Of a DNA stretch of 64,000 nt, positions 2,521 to 60,350 are shown piece by piece (within the stretch, counting starts at the first letter, position 1; each line of letters opens with the position of its first letter). Location: contig CM126224.1 of NCBI GenBank assembly GCA_052327205.1, forward strand, positions 28,706,001-28,770,000, read 5' to 3'. The stretch comes from Somniosus microcephalus. Taxonomy: Eukaryota. Made by a program: the position numbers and the translations under genes. Under the pieces are notes generated by a model. That model was not told the origin of the DNA. It did not search any database and was given only the letters and a program-made list of their open reading frames with translations.

Positions 2521-3201
2521 AACTAAAATTAGAAATGTTTAAAAACATAGGGAGCCTGAATTTGCAGTCGGAGGCATCCCGTGGGCGAATGCCTCCGAAC
2601 CGTAAGAAAAGTATGAACCTACCTGATGGTCCCGTACCTACGAAGACTCATGCTCCTGGGCCTCCAGGCGTAGGCCTGCGTAGAGGCCCATGGATCCCAG
2701 GGGTACATGCGTTTCGCAAGCGCCCCCGGGACCACGTGGGCCGGCCCAACCAATCAGAAAGGGGGATCCCAATTATGCTCATACGGAATTCCCATAAGCT
2801 TAATAGGAATCACATAAAAAGCACAAATTTCACACAACTCAAATAAAAAGAAATCATTACATAGTCAAAATTAATTAAAATACAATGTAATTAAACATTT
2901 AAAACAAAAAATAATTTGTTGAAAAATCAACGTAAACATTTTTGAAGGGTCCAAAAATAACCTAAGCTAATTTTAAAGGTTTTTTTAAGTTTAAATGATT
3001 AAAAAAAATTTTTTTATTTTAATATTTATTTCAACCCTTACGCTGGTAAAAGAAGGCCCTATGCCTGCTTTTACCGGGCATAAGATTTTTTGGGGCATTC
3101 GCTGGGCAGTAGTCGCGCAAACAGCCCAACTCTCCATCAGCGAATGTCCATTTCCTGGGGATGCGGTGGATCTGTCAAGCTGACACTTGACAGATCGCAA
3201 G

Positions 3202-3458
3202 TGTTAAGTATGTGTATTGTATTGAACAATTAACACAAAGACTTAAACGTATAACTCAAACAGGTCTTTACTGGTTGGAGGTAGGGACTGCACGTAGGTC
3301 TTTACTTCATGCCCACAGGCGGGAACTGAGGGGAGATCAGTACCCACAGTACTATTTATACCCCTATGGCCAGGAGTGGTACTGCGTATCACTACGCCCT
3401 ACAAGTAGTGCAGTCCTGTCCATAGGTTCAAAGTAGCACACATATTACATACACAACA
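3202..3458 (-). repeat. 3' LTR (257 bp)
   Basis: Direct repeat of 6523-6779; the only difference I see is C3402 vs T6723; TGTT...AACA termini. Confidence 0.97.
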
Positions 3459-3471
3459 TTCCTCCCTTCTT
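3459..3471 (-). promoter_or_regulatory. Polypurine tract AAGAAGGGAGGAA
   Basis: 13 purines on the - strand directly abutting the 3' LTR. Confidence 0.9.
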
Positions 3472-3569
3472 AGCTTTACAGTCATCTCCCCATTTAACAT
3501 AACGTAATAACATATATACATATATGACTTCAGGTTTACATAACAGAATAACATAGATAACTTCATGTC

Positions 3570-3766
3570 AAAACAGATCACAGATTCAGTCTCTGCGGAA
3601 AACAGTTCACAGATTCAATCTCTGTGGTGTAGTCGGTTCACGTTGCTGGAGTGACTCATTCAATAGTCCTTCCATGGATTTAACAGTTTGAACTTCCGAA
3701 CTGAATTGGCTCCTTTCGGAGGGACCACGTGTGTGATCTGGTAGAGGTAATAATGGTTCAGATGGG
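3570..3766 (-). pseudogene. Vestigial integrase C-terminal tail of pol (…REPTTPQRLNL*), last 29 bp tandemly duplicated
   Basis: Pro/Ser-rich stretch ending PQRLNL-stop just before the PPT, resembling Mag-type pol ends; out of frame with the main ORF; duplicate units at 3570-3598 and 3599-3627. Confidence 0.6.
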
Positions 3767-5959
3767 TCATCTTCTGTTTCGACTTTTCCTTTTCTGCTTC
3801 TTGGAGACTTTCTGGGCTCCACTGTCAGCTGCCTGCTGCATGCGCAGTTCCTCCTTCTCTTCCTCCTTTTTCCGTAGTAGAGCCACCTTCTCCCGATGTT
3901 CCGTAGACTTTCGGTGCTCCTCCATGATTTCTGTATGGTGGGAGTCGAAGTTACAAGTTGGGCAGGACAGGACATAGTAATATTCGGTGTCGTCCTGATC
4001 TAGGCCAGCGAGAGGGTCTTCTATTTCCTCCATACCCAGCTGGGCGTTAGCCAGCTTTTGTTCCAAGTCCAGACATCTTTCCTGAAGAGACTTCTTCATG
4101 CGTACCTCTTCATCCAGCTTTTTCTGGGCTTTCAGCAAGTCGTTTACTAATGACCTCATTTGAGATTTTACTACTTCAACTTCTTTTGGAGATTGATTGA
4201 TCGGACTATTCAATCCCTCTACTGGAGCAGCTGTTTCAGCGGTCTGTTGTTCTACGTTGACGTGAGTCAGCGTACTTTTGGCATCCAAGGGCTGCTCTGT
4301 TGCAGTCATCTCAGTCTGTGTTGCCACCTCAGCTCTTCCAATAACCTTTGAGAGCTCCGAACCCCTTTCGTTTGAATATTGAAGTTCGTGTTCAAGTTTT
4401 TCCCATTTCAGAGTCCTGTCCTTCAGCATATGCAGGAGTTGGCTGACCGTTAACTCCTCTGACATCAGACGTTTTGTGTGCTCCTGCTCCATTTTCTCCA
4501 TCAGCTGCTTCTGTTGTCTTTCCAGATTCTCCAACTCTATATCAAAGAACTCTTTCGTCGCATTCAACTCTTGCTCAAAACGGCGAAGCATTTGTTCTAA
4601 TTGCTGTTGTAGTTTGAAATGGAGTTGAGTTCGAGCCCGGTGTCCCTCAGAAATGGGCACATCAGTAGACTTGCCAGACTCAGAATCCACAGTTAAACTA
4701 TGTTGTTGTTGCTCAGTGGAATTCTGTGCTGAAACTTTGTCTTTTGCACCTGAGTTGGGCTTACCATCATCCGTTCCAGAGTCTGGGCCGACTATCTTCA
4801 CCGAGTTCTCACTCGTTATTGTTTGTAGGAAATGCCAGTCCATATTCATTTTCCTAATCCACTCCCGTCCTAGTAGTGGAGGACCTCCTTCAGATATCAC
4901 ATATAAGTCCATTATTTGACTGTCTTCGCCCTTGTGGACCACTGCAACCTCTATTTTCCCGATGGGGTACACTCTTTGCCCCGTGTATGTTTTCAATATA
5001 ATCCCCGTATCCTGTAGGGGAATATGTTGGAATAACTTTCCGTAATCTTTCTTATTTATGACCGTCAATGCCGATCCAGTGTCCAATTCCAGTTTTACTT
5101 GGACTCCTTCTATCTGAAGAGTGACCCAAATTGTCTGGAGGTCTGCACCCTTACCAGCGTTGAGTACTCTTAAGCTAGCCAGTTCATTACTGCTAGCGTC
5201 TGAATCGGACTCCTGTTCGGTCACCTTGTGTACCTTTGCGTATTTTCCTTGCGGTGACTTCTTGTTGCTGGTCTTCTTCCCTGACCTGCATACTCTAGCT
5301 ATATGTCCAAGCCTACCACAAGTTCTACATTCTTGGTTTTTAAACCAACACTGGTTCTGATCATGCGTTGTCTTTCCACAACGATAACATTTGCCAGAAC
5401 TCACACCCAATTTGTGTGCACTGAGCTCCGGTGACCGTAGCTGCATTACTGCCGTGCCTCTCGCTGCGGCTTCGTGTGCTGCTGCCATAGTGACCGCCTT
5501 CTCAAGCGTCAGCTCATTCTCCTCGAGCAGTCGCTTTTGTGTATCCTGTTTAAATAAACCACACACAAATTTGTCTCGAAGTGCCTCTGTCAGTCCCGTT
5601 CCAAACTGGCAATATTTCGCTAATTTACGCAATTCCAGCAAATATTCAGCATTGCTTTCATGCTGTAGCTGCCTTCTGTCGTAAAATTTAAATCGTTCCG
5701 CTAGCATCAGCGGCGTGGGGTTTAGATGATCTTTCAGGACAGTAACAATCTCATCGAACGTCTTATCCGCCGGTTCATCTGGTGATAACAGGTGTTTCAA
5801 TTGCCCGTATGTCTTCGCACCCATTAAATTTAATAATGTTAGAGCTTTATCTTGGTCACGAATTTTATTGGCCTTACAATAATTTTTTACTCTTTCAACA
5901 TATATGGCCCAATCTTCGAGGTCACTATCAAAGGTGCTAATATTCCCGTGTTTAGGCAT
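3767..5959 (-). CDS. 730-aa chimeric polyprotein: Gag (2x CCHC) - aspartic protease - linker - STK10/SLK-like coiled coil - OPTN-like coiled coil - DNAJC21-like C2H2 zinc finger and basic tail
   Basis: Uninterrupted ORF. Mag-type Gag N-terminus (DWAIYVERV...[11 protein letters not shown]), knuckles [14 protein letters not shown] and [14 protein letters not shown] (aa191-224), protease LDTGS...LLGREWI (aa292-368). C-terminal half matches remembered host proteins (see findings). Confidence 0.93.
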
Positions 5960-6511
5960 TGTAGATTTGCAATTTCTCAGATTTTATTTTCTTTACTTGT
6001 TATCAAAGATGGCGGCTTCCCGCTCTTGCCGTCGTCCTCCGCCCACAAAATGGCGGTTTTCCCGCGCTTGGCGGTCTTCACCCGTCCCCCGACGCCGTCT
6101 CCCTTCAGCCCCCGAGTGCGGCCCTTATCTTCGCCGCGATCGATAGCCCGCGCTGTGCACCGCGGCTCTCGCACCTTGAGCTTCTGCAGCCGCCGCGCCT
6201 TTCAGTCCGAATGCGGCCCTTATCTTTGGTCCCGATCGCTGGCCCGCGCTGCGCCTCGCACTTGAAGCGGCTCCCGGCCTCTGGCTCACCCGCTCGCGCG
6301 GCTCTTGCTCGCTCCCTCCCGGGCTCTGGCTTACCCACGAGGTTATGGAGGCTTCAGGGTCCTAATGCCTGTCGCTTCCAGTCGCTGGAAGCTGTCAGGA
6401 TTTCTGCTGCCCTTCAGTTTTGAGTGGGGTGTTGAGGATTGAAACCTCTCTTCAACGTCCTGTCTTTGGACGAAGCCGCCGTGGAATAACTGCCGCAGGG
6501 TAAGAACCTGA

Positions 6512-6521
6512 CTCGTCGCCA
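6512..6521 (-). promoter_or_regulatory. Primer-binding site TGGCGACGAG, complementary to the 3' end of tRNA-Ser(GCU)
   Basis: One nt inside the 5' LTR; vertebrate tRNA-Ser(GCT) ends CTCGTCGCCA. Confidence 0.85.
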
Positions 6522-6522
6522 G

Positions 6523-6779
6523 TGTTAAGTATGTGTATTGTATTGAACAATTAACACAAAGACTTAAACGTATAACTCAAACAGGTCTTTACTGGTTGGA
6601 GGTAGGGACTGCACGTAGGTCTTTACTTCATGCCCACAGGCGGGAACTGAGGGGAGATCAGTACCCACAGTACTATTTATACCCCTATGGCCAGGAGTGG
6701 TACTGCGTATCACTACGCCCTATAAGTAGTGCAGTCCTGTCCATAGGTTCAAAGTAGCACACATATTACATACACAACA
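6523..6779 (-). repeat. 5' LTR (257 bp) with TATA box (TATAAATA at 6681-6674) and AGTAAA poly(A)-like signals
   Basis: Direct repeat of 3202-3458; motifs read on the - strand. Confidence 0.97.
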
Positions 6780-7439
6780 GCAAGTTCCAGGTGTTCACGC
6801 GTGCGCATCGCGTGCGGAAATCTGGGACTTGCGGGGCATTTACGGCCAGCATACACGGTGCGCACACGGTCATAGGCCCCGGAAAATCAGGGCCAGGGTG
6901 TGTCCATGTTTGATCCAGAATTTAAAACTCTCTTCAGAGAAACTAATGCAGTAATAGAAAGTATCTCAAAATAAATGTGCAACTTCTTGCAAGGTGCAAA
7001 ATATATAACTTTTTATTTTTTAATTGGTGTATAGTTTATCAATGTGTAATGGTTTAAAGTCAATTAAATTATTGGAAGTATGCCGCCTTGCTTGTTTGAT
7101 CTACAGATGAAAATCACTATGAAATATTCTGTAAACCCTATGTACTCAATTTTTAACGCACCATCTTCAATCAATACTCTTTTGAGGCTAAGCAATTACA
7201 GAAGTTAACCATTAATGAATTGATAGTCTTGTTTCGTTGCCACGTTTGCAGAATTTAATGTCACTATTCAATTTCTTCACACCAGTGCTAATTTGAACTC
7301 AAAACAAGACCTTTGATTTTATCCTCTGAAACCTTTGCAATTAAATGGTGACTTGCTGCTCGTGGACTTCTCCACTATATTTCAGTTATTAGATGACTGA
7401 GAAAAATATTAAATTGGCTATCTTTTCCTCAAAATTAGA

Positions 7440-48577: not shown

Positions 48578-50025
48578 TACATAAGAACATAAGAAATAGG
48601 AGCAGGAGTAGGCCAATCGGCCCCTCAAGCCTGCTCCGCCATTCAATAAGATCATGGCTGATCTGATCCTAACCGCCAATCTACTATCACTGAACCATCT
48701 CCTGAATCTAACAGAATTAGACACACGAAATAGGAGCAGGATCAGGCTACACGGCCCCTGGGCCCGCTCCGCTACCCACAGGGCCATGACCGATCCGAAC
48801 CTAGACTCATGTCCAAATTCCTGCCCGTTCCCCGTAACCCTTTATTCCCTTTACTTCTCGGAAACTGTCTATTTCTGTTTTAAATTTATGTAATGATGTA
48901 GCTTCCACAGCTTTTTGGGGCAGCATATTCCATGGACCTACCACCCTCTGAGTGAAGTAGTTCCTCCTCATCTCAGTTTTGAAAGAGCAGCCCCTTATTC
49001 TAAGACTATGCCCCCTAGTTCTAGTTTCACCCATCATCGGGAACACCCTCCCCGCATCCACCCGATCCAACCCCTTCACAATCTTATATGTTTCAATAAG
49101 ATCGCCTCTCATTCTTCTGAACTCCAATGAGTAGAGTCCCAATCTACTCAACCTCTCCTCATATGTCCACCCCCTCATCCCCGGGATTAACCGAGTGAAC
49201 CTTCTTTGTACTGACTCGAGAGCAAGTATGTCCTTTCTTAAGTATGGACACCAAAACTGTACGCAGTATTCCAGGTGCGGTCTCACCAATACCTTGTACA
49301 ACTGAAGCAATACCTCCCTATTTTTATATTCTATCCCCCTAGCAATGAAAGCCAACATTCCATTGGCCTTCTTAATCACTTGCTGCTGCATACTAACCTT
49401 TTGAGTTTCGTGCACCAGGACCCCCAGATCCCTTTGTACTTCAGTACTTTCCAGTTTCTTGCCATTAAGATAATAACTTGCTCTACGATTTTTCCTGCCA
49501 AAGTGCATAACCTCACACTTTCCAGTATTGTATTCCATCTGCCAAATCTCTGCCCACTTACTTAGCCTGTCGATGTCCCCTTGCAGGTTTTTTATGTCCT
49601 CCTCACTCACTACTTTCCCTCCCATCTTAGTATCATCTGCAAACTTTGATATGTTACACTCGGTCCCCTCCTCCAAATCGTTAATATAGATTGTAAAGAG
49701 TTGGGGACCCAGCACCGACCCCTGCTGAACACCACTAGTTACTGATTGCCAGTCTGAGAATGAACCATTTATCCCAACTCTCTGCTTTGTTAGATAGCCA
49801 ATCCTCTATCCATGCCAGAACATTACCCCCAATCCCGTGATTTTTTATCTTAAGCAATAATCTTTTGTGTGGCACCTTGTCAAATGCCTTTTGGAAGTCT
49901 AAATACACTACGTCCACTGGTTCCCCTTTATCCACCCTATATGTTACTTCCTCAAAGAACTCTAGCAAATTTGTCAAACATGACTTCCCCTTCATAAAAC
50001 CATGCTGACTTTGTCCTATTAAATG
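48578..50025 (-). mobile_element. 5'-truncated young CR1 LINE; RT ORF remnant (302 aa open at 48807-49715)
   Basis: LDFQKAFDKVPH, LGPQLFTIYINDL, KFADDTK, RPHLEYCVQFW motifs; ACATAAGA-type tail. Confidence 0.95.
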
Positions 50026-52764: not shown

Positions 52765-53590
52765 GTAAGTATATATCTCTGGTGATCAGCTTTTCAGTAG
52801 ACTAGACTTAATTACGCAATAGTATACTCTGTAAATTTTGAGACTCCACACAGATTTATTCTCAGTGCTGTGTTTCATGTACCAAGTGCTCTAAGAAGGG
52901 AATTGGGATATTGCAGCTGACAGTTTTTGATGGCTGCACTGTATCTTCAGTTCATCAATCAGATCCCTTTGTGTGTAAAGATAGGTGAATATCCTTAACC
53001 CTTGACTGTTTAATTTTATTATCTTCCTATTCTATAACTTTGTAGCATTTACTGTATATCTACACTAAGTGTGCCAGTAAGAAAAAGTTTACTAACTATT
53101 GTAATGGGTCGTACATTAAGAACAACAGAAACATGTTTTTTTACAAAGAGATTATTTCATAAAATGCTGTAATCTTGTTATTTATTTTTATGTTTATATT
53201 TTCCTCTGGTACCCTTGGGGGTAAAGTGATAAGAATATTTGTTCCTAATAGGTCCTCATGCTTTGAGAACTAAGGACTAATATTTTTGCATAATTTGATC
53301 TATCTGAAGTATTAAAGTAACCAGCTGACTTGGAATAGATTGGGTCAGAAAAAGTTTATTATTTTTATAAATGGATTTGCTTTTATGAACATTTATATTT
53401 AGTGTGATTTTGCATTTATGAATACCTTCCAGCAAACTAAGTGACTGACTTAAAAGCACTTCATTGGTTGTGAAGTGCTTTGGGACATGATAATGCACTG
53501 TATAAAACATGCTATCTTTCCTTCTGTCTTTCCCTTCTTCTTCTTTCCTCTCCCCCCTCTTGTGTTCTCCCTCCTCCCGTCACCCTCTCC

Positions 53591-53950
53591 CTCCTCCCCT
53601 CGCCCCCTTCCCTCCTCCTCCCCTCGCCCCCTTCCCTCCTCCTCCCCTCGCCCCCTTCCCTCCTCCTCCCCTCGCCCCCTTCCCTCCTCCTCCCCTCGCC
53701 CCCTTCCCTCCTCCTCCCCTCGCCCCCTTCCCTCCTCCTCCCCTCGCCCCCTTCCCTCCTCCTCCCCTCGCCCCCTTCCCTCCTCCTCCCCTCGCCCCCT
53801 TCCCTCCTCCTCCCCTCGCCCCCTTCCCTCCTCCTCCCCTCGCCCCCTTCCCTCCTCCTCCCCTCGCCCCCTTCCCTCCTCCTCCCCTCGCCCCCTTCCC
53901 TCCTCCTCCCCTCGCCCCCTTCCCTCCTCCTCCCCTCGCCCCCTTCCCTC
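53591..53950. repeat. Perfect tandem repeat, 15 x 24 bp (CTCCTCCCCTCGCCCCCTTCCCTC), running into a gap
   Basis: Directly visible. Confidence 0.95.
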
Positions 53951-54218
53951 NNNNNNNNNNNNNNNNNNNNNNNNNNNNNNNNNNNNNNNNNNNNNNNNNN
54001 NNNNNNNNNNNNNNNNNNNNNNNNNNNNNNNNNNNNNNNNNNNNNNNNNNNNNNNNNNNNNNNNNNNNNNNNNNNNNNNNNNNNNNNNNNNNNNNNNNNN
54101 NNNNNNNNNNNNNNNNNNNNNNNNNNNNNNNNNNNNNNNNNNNNNNNNNNNNNNNNNNNNNNNNNNNNNNNNNNNNNNNNNNNNNNNNNNNNNNNNNNNN
54201 NNNNNNNNNNNNNNNNNN
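53951..54218. other. Assembly gap (268 N)
   Basis: Run of N. Confidence 1.
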
Positions 54219-54374
54219 TCGCCCCCCCCCCCTCCTCCCGTCACCACCCCCCTCTCCTCCAGTCGCCCCCTCTCCCGTTTTTGCCCCCTGCTCCTTCCGG
54301 TACATTCTCTCTCTCTCCTCACTTATTAATCTCTCTCAGAGCCATTTTTTGTCCTACAGAATATTAAATGAAAG

Positions 54375-58309: not shown

Positions 58310-60350
58310 ATAAGTACATAAGAAGGAGCAGGAATAGGCCACTTGGCCCCTCGAGCCTGCTCCGCCATTCAATAAGATCATGGCTGATCTTGGGCTCAAA
58401 GCCAGTTCTCTGCCCGCTCCCCATAACTCTTCAGTCCCTTATCTTGCAAAAATCTGTCTATATCCACCTTAAATGTATTTAATGACCCAGCCTCCACGGC
58501 TTTTTGGGGCAGAGAATTCCACAGATTTGCGACCCTCATCTCAGTTCTAAAAGGGCGACCCTTTATTCTAAAACTGTGCCCCCGCATTCTAAATTTCCCC
58601 ACGAGGAGAAACATCCTCTCTGCATCTACCTTGTCGAGCCCCCTCAGTATCTTATATGTTTCAATAAGATCACCTCTCATTCTTCTGAATTTCAATGAGT
58701 ATAGGCCCAACCTGCTCAACCTTTCTTCATAAGTCAACTCCCTTATCTCAGGAATCAACCGAGTGAATCGTATCTGAACTGCCTCCAATGCAAGTATATC
58801 CTTCCTTAAATAAGGAGACCAAAACTGTATGCAGTACTCCAGGTGTGGTCTCACCAATACCCTATACAGTTGTAGCAGGACTTCCCTGCTTTTATACTCC
58901 AACCCCCTTGCAATAAAGGCCAACATTCCATTTGCCTTTTTGATTACTTGCTGTACCTGCATGCTAACTTTGTGTTTCATGCACAAGGACCCCCAGGTCC
59001 CTCTGAACTGTAGCATTTTGTAATCTCTCTCCATTTAAATAATTTGCTTTTTTATTTTTCCTGACAAAGTGGATAACCTCGCACTTTCCTACATTATACT
59101 CCATCTGCCAAATGTTTACCCACTCATTAGCCTATCTATATCCCTTTGCAGATTTTTTGAGTCCTCTGCACAACTTGCTTTCCCACCCATCTTTGTATCA
59201 TCTGCAAAATTGGCTACATTACACTCAGTCCCTTCATCCAAGTCATTAATGTAGATTGTAAATAGTTGAGGCTCCAGCACCAATCCCTGTGGCACCCCAC
59301 TAGTTACAGTTTGCCAACCGGAAAATGACCCATTTATCCCGACTCTGCTTTCTGTTAGTTAGCCAATTCTCTATCCATGCTGATATATTTCCCCCAACTC
59401 CGTGAGCTCTTCTCTTATGCAGTAACCTTTTATGTAGCACCTTATTGAATGCCTTCTGGAAATCCAAATACACCACATCCACTGGTTCACCTTTGTCCAC
59501 CCTGCTCGTTACCTCCTCAAAGAACTGCAGCAAGTTTGTTAAACATGATTTCCCTTTCATAAAACCATGCTGACTCTCCTTGACTGCATTATGATTTTCC
59601 AAATGCCTTGCTACTGCTTGCTTAATGAAGGACTCCAGCATTTTCTCAACAACCGATGTTCGGCTAACTGGTCTATAGTTTCCTGCTTTCTGTCTCCCTC
59701 CTTTCTTAAATAGGGGTGTTACATTTGCGGTTTTCCAATCTGCTGGGACCTCTCCAGGGTCCAGGGAATTTTGGTATATTGCAACCAATGCATCCACTAT
59801 CTCTGCAGCCACTTCTTTCAAGACCCTGGGATGCAGGCCATCTGGTCGAGGGGACTTGTCATCTTTTAGTCCCATTGTTTTACCAAGTACTATTTCCTTA
59901 GTGATGGCGATTTGTCTTTAGTTCCCCCCTCCCTGTGGCCCCTTGATTATCCATTATTGGGATGTTGTTAGTGTCTTCTACCGTGAAGACAGATACAAAA
60001 TATTTGTTCAGAGTCTCTGCTATTTCTCCGTCCCCTATTATTAATTCCCCATTCTCATCCTCTAAGGGACCAACATTTACTTTAGCTACTCTCTTCCTTT
60101 TCATATACCTGTAGAAGCTCTTACTTTCTGTTTTAATATTTCTTGCCAGTTTACTCTTATAATTCATCTCTTTTTAGTCATCCTTTGCTGGTTTTTAAAA
60201 ATTTCCCAATCCTCTGACCTCCCACCAATCTTGGCAACATTGTATGCCTTTGTTTTCAATTTGATACCATCCTTTACTTCCTTAGTTAGCCACGGATAGT
60301 GCTCCCTTCTCTTAAAATTTTTCTTTCTCACTAGAATATATTTTTGTTGA
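58310..60350 (-). mobile_element. 5'-truncated CR1 LINE with frameshifted ORF2
   Basis: ORF pieces 60164-60358, 59898-60167, 59300-59875 and 58396-59034 with CR1 RT motifs; CR1 3' tail at ~58310-58395. Confidence 0.95.

Follow-up and report, generated by a model that had tools for sequence, protein, structure and literature searches.

How did part of a host kinase gene come to lie inside the long open reading frame (ORF) of another genetic element, and does it serve a function there? The locus that raises this question lies in a 64,000-nt stretch of shark DNA, the whole of which is referred to here as the window. A sequence-only reading of the window had described positions 4466-4648 as a captured coiled-coil fragment of STK10, had preferred STK10 to SLK as the donor, and had proposed that the fragment spans an exon-exon junction and was captured through RNA without the kinase domain, with an implied role in binding STK10/SLK.

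The STK10 fragment and its host donor

The fragment corresponds to amino acids 438-498 of a 730-aa ORF (window 4648-4466, minus strand), for which Pfam gave a PKK match above the cut-off (E = 4.3e-10). A homologue search with the fragment returned 420 matches; among the best 120, the named ones were STK10 and the unnamed relatives were kinases with STK10 architecture, and the top 24, mostly STK10 of shark, ray and chimaera, were 75-81% identical. Host stk10 was placed at G000:C8:167,279,477-167,166,244, and exons were numbered by counting along the alignment to this gene. Compared with the spliced exons 11 and 12 of host stk10, the fragment aligned without gaps, with 167/183 nt and 52/61 amino acids identical. 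The joint between the two exons falls at window 4562|4561 (FEQELN|A), in the motif near which the earlier reading had expected a junction, and the 1,029-nt host intron 11 is missing at the exact splice joint, in support of an RNA-mediated capture. SLK was rejected as the donor: two SLK-like paralogous loci (G000:C8:2.27-2.29 Mb and C30:27.48-27.49 Mb) matched at the protein level at 43-63%, and no DNA match of the fragment was found at either. The kinase exons 1-7 are absent from the element, as had been claimed.

The proposed bounds are those of a real stk10 piece but proved too narrow, since stk10 pieces also lie outside them, at 4814-4737, 4740-4644, 4031-4016, 3775-3750, 3747-3693 and 3702-3655. 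In total, eight stk10 pieces were found in the element, in the exon order 9, 9, 11, 12, 8, 8, 9, 9. Two further observations concern stk10 in this genome. The donor of host intron 10 is GC, not GT (G000:C8:167,193,682). At G000:C3:354,658,406-354,658,948, the 3΄ coding part of stk10, from outside exons 8-12, is present without introns and with 96% identity; this copy is likely an ordinary processed pseudogene.

The carrier element

The carrier is a young, non-autonomous LTR element of Gypsy type, 3.58 kb in length, that encodes Gag and protease without reverse transcriptase (RT) or integrase. Its features are as follows, in the direction of the ORF.

6780..6784, no strand: target-site duplication (TSD), upstream copy, 5 bp, identical to 3197-3201
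6523..6779, minus strand: 5΄ LTR, 257 nt, TG...CA ends, 1 mismatch in 257 to the 3΄ LTR
6512..6521, minus strand: primer-binding-site (PBS)-like decamer, from sequence, the same in the autonomous parent and all stages
3767..5959, minus strand: ORF of 730 aa, Gag-protease fused in frame to host cargo (ORF call)
5285..5392, minus strand: two CCHC zinc knuckles of Gag, aa 190-225 (Pfam zf-CCHC, E = 0.003, below cut-off)
4841..5125, minus strand: aspartic protease with intact DTG, aa 279-373 (Pfam gag-asp_proteas, E = 0.002, below cut-off)
4737..4814, minus strand: stk10 exon 9 piece, 88% to host
4644..4740, minus strand: second stk10 exon 9 piece, 86% to host
4562..4648, minus strand: stk10 exon 11 piece, 94% to host
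4467..4561, minus strand: stk10 exon 12 piece, spliced to exon 11, 91% to host
4023..4474, minus strand: spliced optineurin cDNA, four exons, aa 496-645, 81-92% to host optn
4016..4031, minus strand: stk10 exon 8 remnant preceding the third cargo (host alignment; reads and a contig that skip 3776-4015)
3776..4015, minus strand: third cargo with C2H2 finger (two exons of a DNAJC21-like host gene matched)
3655..3775, minus strand: stk10 exon 8 end spliced to exon 9 start, then exon 9 to the entry site of the predicted circle
3607..3654, minus strand: remnant of the parent's integrase C-terminal tail
3459..3471, minus strand: polypurine tract (PPT), from sequence
3202..3458, minus strand: 3΄ LTR, pairs with the 5΄ LTR
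3197..3201, no strand: TSD, downstream copy, 5 bp, identical to the upstream copy

The paired LTRs, TSD, PBS-like sequence and PPT are thus all present, as for a Ty3/Gypsy LTR retrotransposon. The ORF at 5959-3767 (minus strand) is the only long one in the region; its first 381 aa represent Gag, with the two CCHC knuckles, and the aspartic protease, and the stk10 stretch at 3655..3775 now sits behind its stop codon. The best PDB sequence matches of the zinc-knuckle part were retroviral Gag/NC, and in a search of 1.84 billion proteins the best 150 included matches to the Gag-protease part. Pfam detected no RT, RNase H or integrase in the ORF of the window, whereas the ORF of the autonomous parent (stage S0, below) carries all three. 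The parent, with protease, RT, RNase H and integrase (PR-RT-RH-IN) in one ORF and 5-bp TSDs, resembles in general outline the Mag-like Ty3/Gypsy elements, in which gag and pol form one ORF, Gag has two CCHC knuckles and the TSD is 5 bp; in contrast to these, RT, RNase H and the integrase core are missing from the element in the window.

The element is abundant. A genome search with the fragment gave 16,202 first-look candidates, and the 150 that were scored were all 100% identical. A 25-nt joint specific to the form in the window (stage S4) occurred in 3,943 exact copies genome-wide (control, 0), which is a lower bound on the copy number of S4. Among the first 30 copies with this joint on contig C1, the ORF was open to its normal end in 22 and broken in 7, and one copy lacked the 5΄ part.

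A series of stages in the genome

We compared copies from across the genome and distinguished the following stages, the order of which, S0 to S4, we infer from nested joints rather than from a tree. S0 is the autonomous form of 5.26-5.28 kb, with an ORF of 1,317-1,322 aa that encodes PR-RT-RH-IN (three copies examined); it was found by protein search, and a DNA search of the genome that skipped common words returned nothing. In S1 (3.84-3.88 kb; 848-aa ORF in 6/6 copies), stk10 stands in place of pol: in frame, the region for RT, RNase H and most of integrase has given way to exons 9΄-10-11-12-8-9΄. In S2, a deletion that keeps the frame reaches from exon 9 into exon 11, and the back-splice joint is retained (seven copies translated). 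In S3, spliced optn stands in place of the back-splice region (4/10 fetched copies annotated); S3.5 has in addition a DNAJC21-like piece inside the exon 8 remnant; and S4, the form in the window, has undergone three further deletions, all in frame, and carries a stop codon behind the third cargo.

The LTR pairs of all stages are ~99% identical. Judged by copy markers, S4 is the largest stage, with 3,943 exact joints versus 834 and 166 for the other markers. The inserts of S1 have kept 99% identity to the host, and the cargo of S4 has diverged from it by 6-19%; a larger number of replication cycles in the S4 lineage may be the reason for this greater divergence. The stk10 piece of S4 is 94-95% identical to that of S3.5 and 91-92% to that of S1. 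The corresponding values against S0-S3.5 are 77-80% for gag and 75-83% for protease, and dS is 0.95 for gag and 0.18 for the cargo. These values suggest that the backbone of S4 (gag-protease and LTR) was likely swapped in from another Gypsy family, and no autonomous donor of the S4 gag was found among 150 scored of 110,824 candidates.

Some individual copies deviate from this series. In two S3.5 copies (L142 and L144), protease is 86-87% and gag 94-95% identical to S0, likely by recombination with a related family. A 4.07-kb parent-type copy (L094, G000:C2:328,564,501-328,571,000) has an internal pol deletion, with stk10 at neither joint. The S1 copy L092 (G000:C12:213,033,001-213,039,500) sits in a ~43-nt tandem satellite.

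The circularly permuted stk10 insert and its joints

The fragment in the window is what deletions have left of an insert of 1,259 nt that was circularly permuted and contained a back-splice junction. The ends that the fragment has today arose by these secondary deletions and do not mark the joints of the capture. In S1, the insert begins in the 3΄ part of exon 9, continues through exons 10, 11, 12 and 8, and ends in the 5΄ part of exon 9. At the host locus, exon 12 ends with ...AAGAAAGAG|gtaaaa and exon 8 starts with aacag|CACCCT; the 12-to-8 joint lies at exactly this donor and this acceptor in 10/10 S1 loci, a few of them with point changes. Genome-wide, 834 exact copies of the back-splice joint were counted (reversed control, 0). 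The non-colinear joint is carried by the S1 and S2 copies; the window copy has lost it and keeps the permuted order.

Exons 8-12 total 1,245 nt, a multiple of three, and contain no stop. In 6/6 full copies, the S1 insert is one block of 1,259 nt, that is, the 1,245-nt circle plus 14 nt, with 1,245-1,249 of the 1,259 nt matching the circle and no bases from outside exons 8-12. The predicted circle is entered and left at the same site in exon 9. The microhomology that the sequence-only reading had raised for the junctions was found at the capture joints. At the 5΄ joint, a 12-nt word is common to the start of the parent's pol and exon 9, and this word is the longest exact match between the parent coding sequence and the circle; at the 3΄ joint, 7/8 nt are common to the parent's integrase tail and the exon 9 site. 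Similarly, the optn joints share 9 nt and a 13-nt imperfect overlap, and the joints of S2, S3 and S4 likewise fall on short shared words. An empty acceptor joining the two parent sites directly gave no match in the assembly.

Two distant Gypsy elements are present in stk10 introns 7 and 1 (G000:C8:167,208,300-167,212,400 and 167,260,780-167,264,900, respectively). Their gag-protease identity is 65-70%, and they do not belong to the family that made the capture.

Optineurin and DNAJC21-like cargo

Amino acids 496-645 of the ORF correspond to shark optineurin (15/15 matches). The optineurin cargo of the window maps to four spliced exons of host optn on G000:C17. The S3 form contains optn from six spliced exons, with 86-99% identity per exon piece, the lowest value (86%) belonging to a piece that holds a 21-nt deletion. 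This S3 insert (host G000:C17:85,879,057-85,890,333) starts 8 nt past an exon start and ends at or beside the end of the sixth exon; it may derive from a second circle, copied in such a way that the back-splice joint was left out, or from a piece of linear mRNA. In the host assembly at G000:C17:85,884,790-85,885,370, the optn frame is disturbed at an exon joint compared with other sharks and with the element copies, probably by a homopolymer assembly error.

Amino acids 646-730 carry a C2H2 finger. In this third cargo, the segments 3926-3815 and 3809-3767 correspond to two exons of a host gene that resembles DNAJC21, with 77% and 89% identity, respectively; the identities of the same exons to S3.5 copies are 93-95%, or 86% in one copy across a small duplication. 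A degenerate pattern built from a short DNAJC21 motif occurred at 166 genomic places (control, 0), and of 10 places fetched, nine were element copies and one was the host exon at G000:C1:4,792,918. A second C2H2 exon lies downstream in this host gene, and protein-atlas leads for the third cargo pointed, with a low recognition score, to zf-C2H2_jaz/zuotin/DNAJ clusters. The third donor may be DNAJC21, the architecture of which comprises a J domain, a zuotin homology domain and two C2H2 fingers. Neither the J domain nor the exons upstream were found in 240 kb (a 500-N gap lies beside the exon, next to G000:C1:4,793,861). These 240 kb also yielded no exon that would encode the initial half of the zinc finger, and the 89 nt at 4015-3927 are therefore unplaced in host DNA. 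With aa 643-730, a homologue search gave 0/67 candidates at E ≤ 10, and sequence scans of Pfam and PDB were uninformative. A Pfam PF21884 match was rejected as belonging to another locus (G000:C17:58.36 Mb), probably DNAJC2.

Selection on residues and on the reading frame

We analyzed whether the residues of the cargo or its reading frame have been maintained. A functional cargo, in which the STK10 and optineurin coiled coils would dimerise the protease, bind STK10/SLK or disturb optineurin-type autophagy or antiviral signalling, is unlikely in our estimation. The three captures are helical or coiled-coil-rich and stand in their native frame, the coiled-coil piece outlasted every deletion, S4 is the largest stage counted, and simple dN/dS ratios against the host were 0.57 for all cargo, 0.37 for the STK10 pieces and 0.26 for the exon 11-12 piece, all of which would agree with a function. 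However, when the same base changes were re-dealt at random, in a neutral test of little power, the observed amino acid changes did not fall significantly under the neutral expectation: 23 vs 26.2 for STK10 (P = 0.12), 28 vs 28.9 for OPTN (P = 0.43), 12 vs 12.4 for DNAJC21 (P = 0.52), and 8 vs 10.1 for the 58 codons of the coiled coil (P = 0.14). Among 30 S4 copies picked by the DNA joint, the ratio of nonsynonymous to synonymous cargo variants was 48:16 for shared and 51:21 for single-copy variants (P = 0.70), a comparison that was also without signal for gag-protease (P = 0.70) and is therefore weak; in the STK10 part, the shared variants were 21 nonsynonymous and 6 synonymous. Moreover, the cargo was cut and replaced again and again, and the success of S4 goes along with a different gag and LTR. 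The implied STK10/SLK-binding role of the coiled coil is thus unsupported. A comparison of dN/dS between the window and copies L001-L020 was dropped, these copies having been picked for 100% identity in the STK10 piece and sharing branches.

The reading frame exhibited a different pattern. As read from translations, 11 of 12 rearrangement joints were in frame, the exit from DNAJC21 being the exception, in a sample that is biased in that the stages were found with protein queries and the S3 copies were chosen for a long ORF. Among the available 7-nt matches, 165/381 (43%) would be in frame (binomial P ~7e-4, calculated by hand). All four indel types shared between S4 copies were net multiples of three, and 2/4 single-copy indels were not. 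The 294 cargo codons contain no stop, and at least one stop appeared in 79%, 69% and 49% of simulated runs for the three cargoes.

The in-frame joints and the absence of stops are the observations that speak against a pure passenger, a reading that we consider improbable. Under it, the frame would be unselected and the in-frame joints would result from codon-biased microhomology, young age and the way in which the stages were discovered. Matches between coding sequences are indeed in frame in 43%, not 33%, of cases, all stages are young by their LTR pairs, the stages were ascertained by protein search, and S4 tolerates a stop ahead of the old end. Taken together, the sequence comparisons suggest that the cargo is likely filler, with the frame and not the residues under selection. 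An open frame may, for instance, let translation proceed almost to the 3΄ end of the RNA and thereby favour its stability or its packaging in cis.

Transcription of the family

Two RNA runs with the same species label as the searched genome were mapped to positions 3540-6790 at 93% likeness; the reads are counted at the level of the family and are not assignable to the window copy. In run X7, 13,866 of 16.65 million reads fell on the element, and in run X8, 12,673 of 14.40 million, with a weak strand bias. The depth of X7 at 4521-4629 was 657 in sense and 14.5 in antisense, and its first mates lay mostly on the plus strand; in most stranded libraries, first mates on this strand correspond to RNA of the same sense as the element. 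At the level of the family, transcription thus proceeds in sense. Positions 3776-4015 are absent from a few reads and from one contig, which represent a sister form lacking the third cargo.

A proposed template-switch model for the capture

We propose that the fragment is the remnant of one turn of back-spliced stk10 exons 8-12, probably copied from a circular RNA by template switching, and we consider this explanation as a whole, with the in-frame filler reading of the cargo included, to be likely. RT would have jumped from the integrase tail onto a co-packaged predicted circle at a short match, and minus-strand synthesis would have rounded the circle once, ending where the enzyme's RNase H had previously cleaved the RNA. 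RT would then have returned to the start of pol at the 12-nt match. Alternatively to a limit set by RNase H, the shared entry and exit site may reflect two parent sites that resemble one host word. Later switches would have added the other genes and likely also the gag-protease and LTR of another Gypsy family. Gag-protease would be encoded by the element itself, with RT and integrase supplied in trans. With slightly more confidence than doubt, we extend this model to the whole family: an LTR element would have packaged a host circRNA and taken one RNase H-limited turn of it into pol, founding a lineage of thousands of expressed fusions that sample host RNAs under frame selection.

The permuted order could also derive from linear RNA, with RT template switching kept, if stk10 was transcribed with an exon repeat, was trans-spliced, or had an allele with tandem exons 8-12. 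The same 12-to-8 joint is expected from such an RNA, and element transcripts carry the same joint as the host circle, which is predicted from DNA; furthermore, no inverted repeats were found between introns 7 and 12 or 13 of stk10, which would be in keeping with a linear source. Nevertheless, we regard this origin as distinctly unlikely in view of the host exons, each of which is single in the 140 kb examined, of the insert, which comprises exons 8-12 only in one turn plus 14 nt, and of the 381 matches of at least 7 nt that offered RT other exits. DNA-level capture, or a single domesticated host gene, would accord with the long open frame and transcription but is already refuted: the pieces of all three genes lack their introns precisely at the splice sites, and the element has paired LTRs and a TSD and exists in thousands of copies.

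Comparison with known systems

LTR-mediated retrocopies in metazoans were described by Tan et al. 2016 (PMC5131818). There, as in the present family, internal ORFs of an LTR element have been exchanged for pieces of host mRNA, microsimilarity occurs at the joints (here 12 nt, 7/8 nt, 9 nt and an imperfect 13 nt), several parental genes contribute to one locus, the products are recopied as non-autonomous elements, and they are transcribed with the element (here, family-level sense reads in X7). Unlike the retrocopies described there, the first cargo of the present family is circularly permuted and fused in frame to Gag-protease, and thousands of copies coexist with intermediate stages. The word 'circular' does not occur in the main text of PMC5131818.

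Dong et al. 2016 (PMC4897178) reported 33 copies of pseudogenes derived from mouse circRFWD2, with MMERVK10C LTR sequences in the flanks of a circRFWD2 pseudogene; the mechanism of circRNA retrotransposition was called mysterious, and the main text contains no joints with a parent element. The two cases share a genomic non-colinear back-splice joint, many copies and LTR sequence. The features by which circRNA retrocopies are recognized in PMC4897178, namely a joint at exact splice sites and no sequence from outside the exons, were found here, the circle being predicted from DNA. Unlike circRFWD2 as presented in the main text of PMC4897178, the parent, both switch points, the one-turn length and the in-frame fusion are visible, 834 exact joint copies exist, and the element is of Gypsy type, not ERV-K. 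LTR flanks may suggest LTR-mediated circRNA retrotransposition, according to a review (PMC5408686).

Maize Bs1 is likewise an LTR element, and its hybrid ORF includes exon sequence from three host genes; it is a plant element with one to five copies per Zea species, versus thousands here, and circular RNA is not mentioned where it is described in PMC5131818 and PMC5408686. In a literature search with most subscription papers outside its coverage, we found no paper on this retrotransposon family, none on a circRNA of STK10, OPTN, DNAJC21 or SLK, and no case closer than Tan 2016, Dong 2016 and PMC5408686.

If the model is true, the family would represent a base-resolved record of circRNA retrotransposition. 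The presence of the parent, both switch points, the one-turn length and the later stages in one genome makes the template-switch model testable, and the series bears on the mechanism that Dong et al. 2016 left open. It also exhibits serial exon shuffling inside a mobile family with thousands of transcribed copies. In practice, 834 genomic back-splice joints and thousands of stk10 and optn pieces will interfere with the detection of circRNAs and the annotation of genes in this shark.

Other features of the window

Two decayed LINE-like RT fragments, ~78% alike, lie on the minus strand at 48797-49861 and 58386-59875, with a Pfam RVT_1 match for 59300-59875. In addition, a 24-nt tandem array with proline-rich ORFs, partly masked, occupies 53494-54300.
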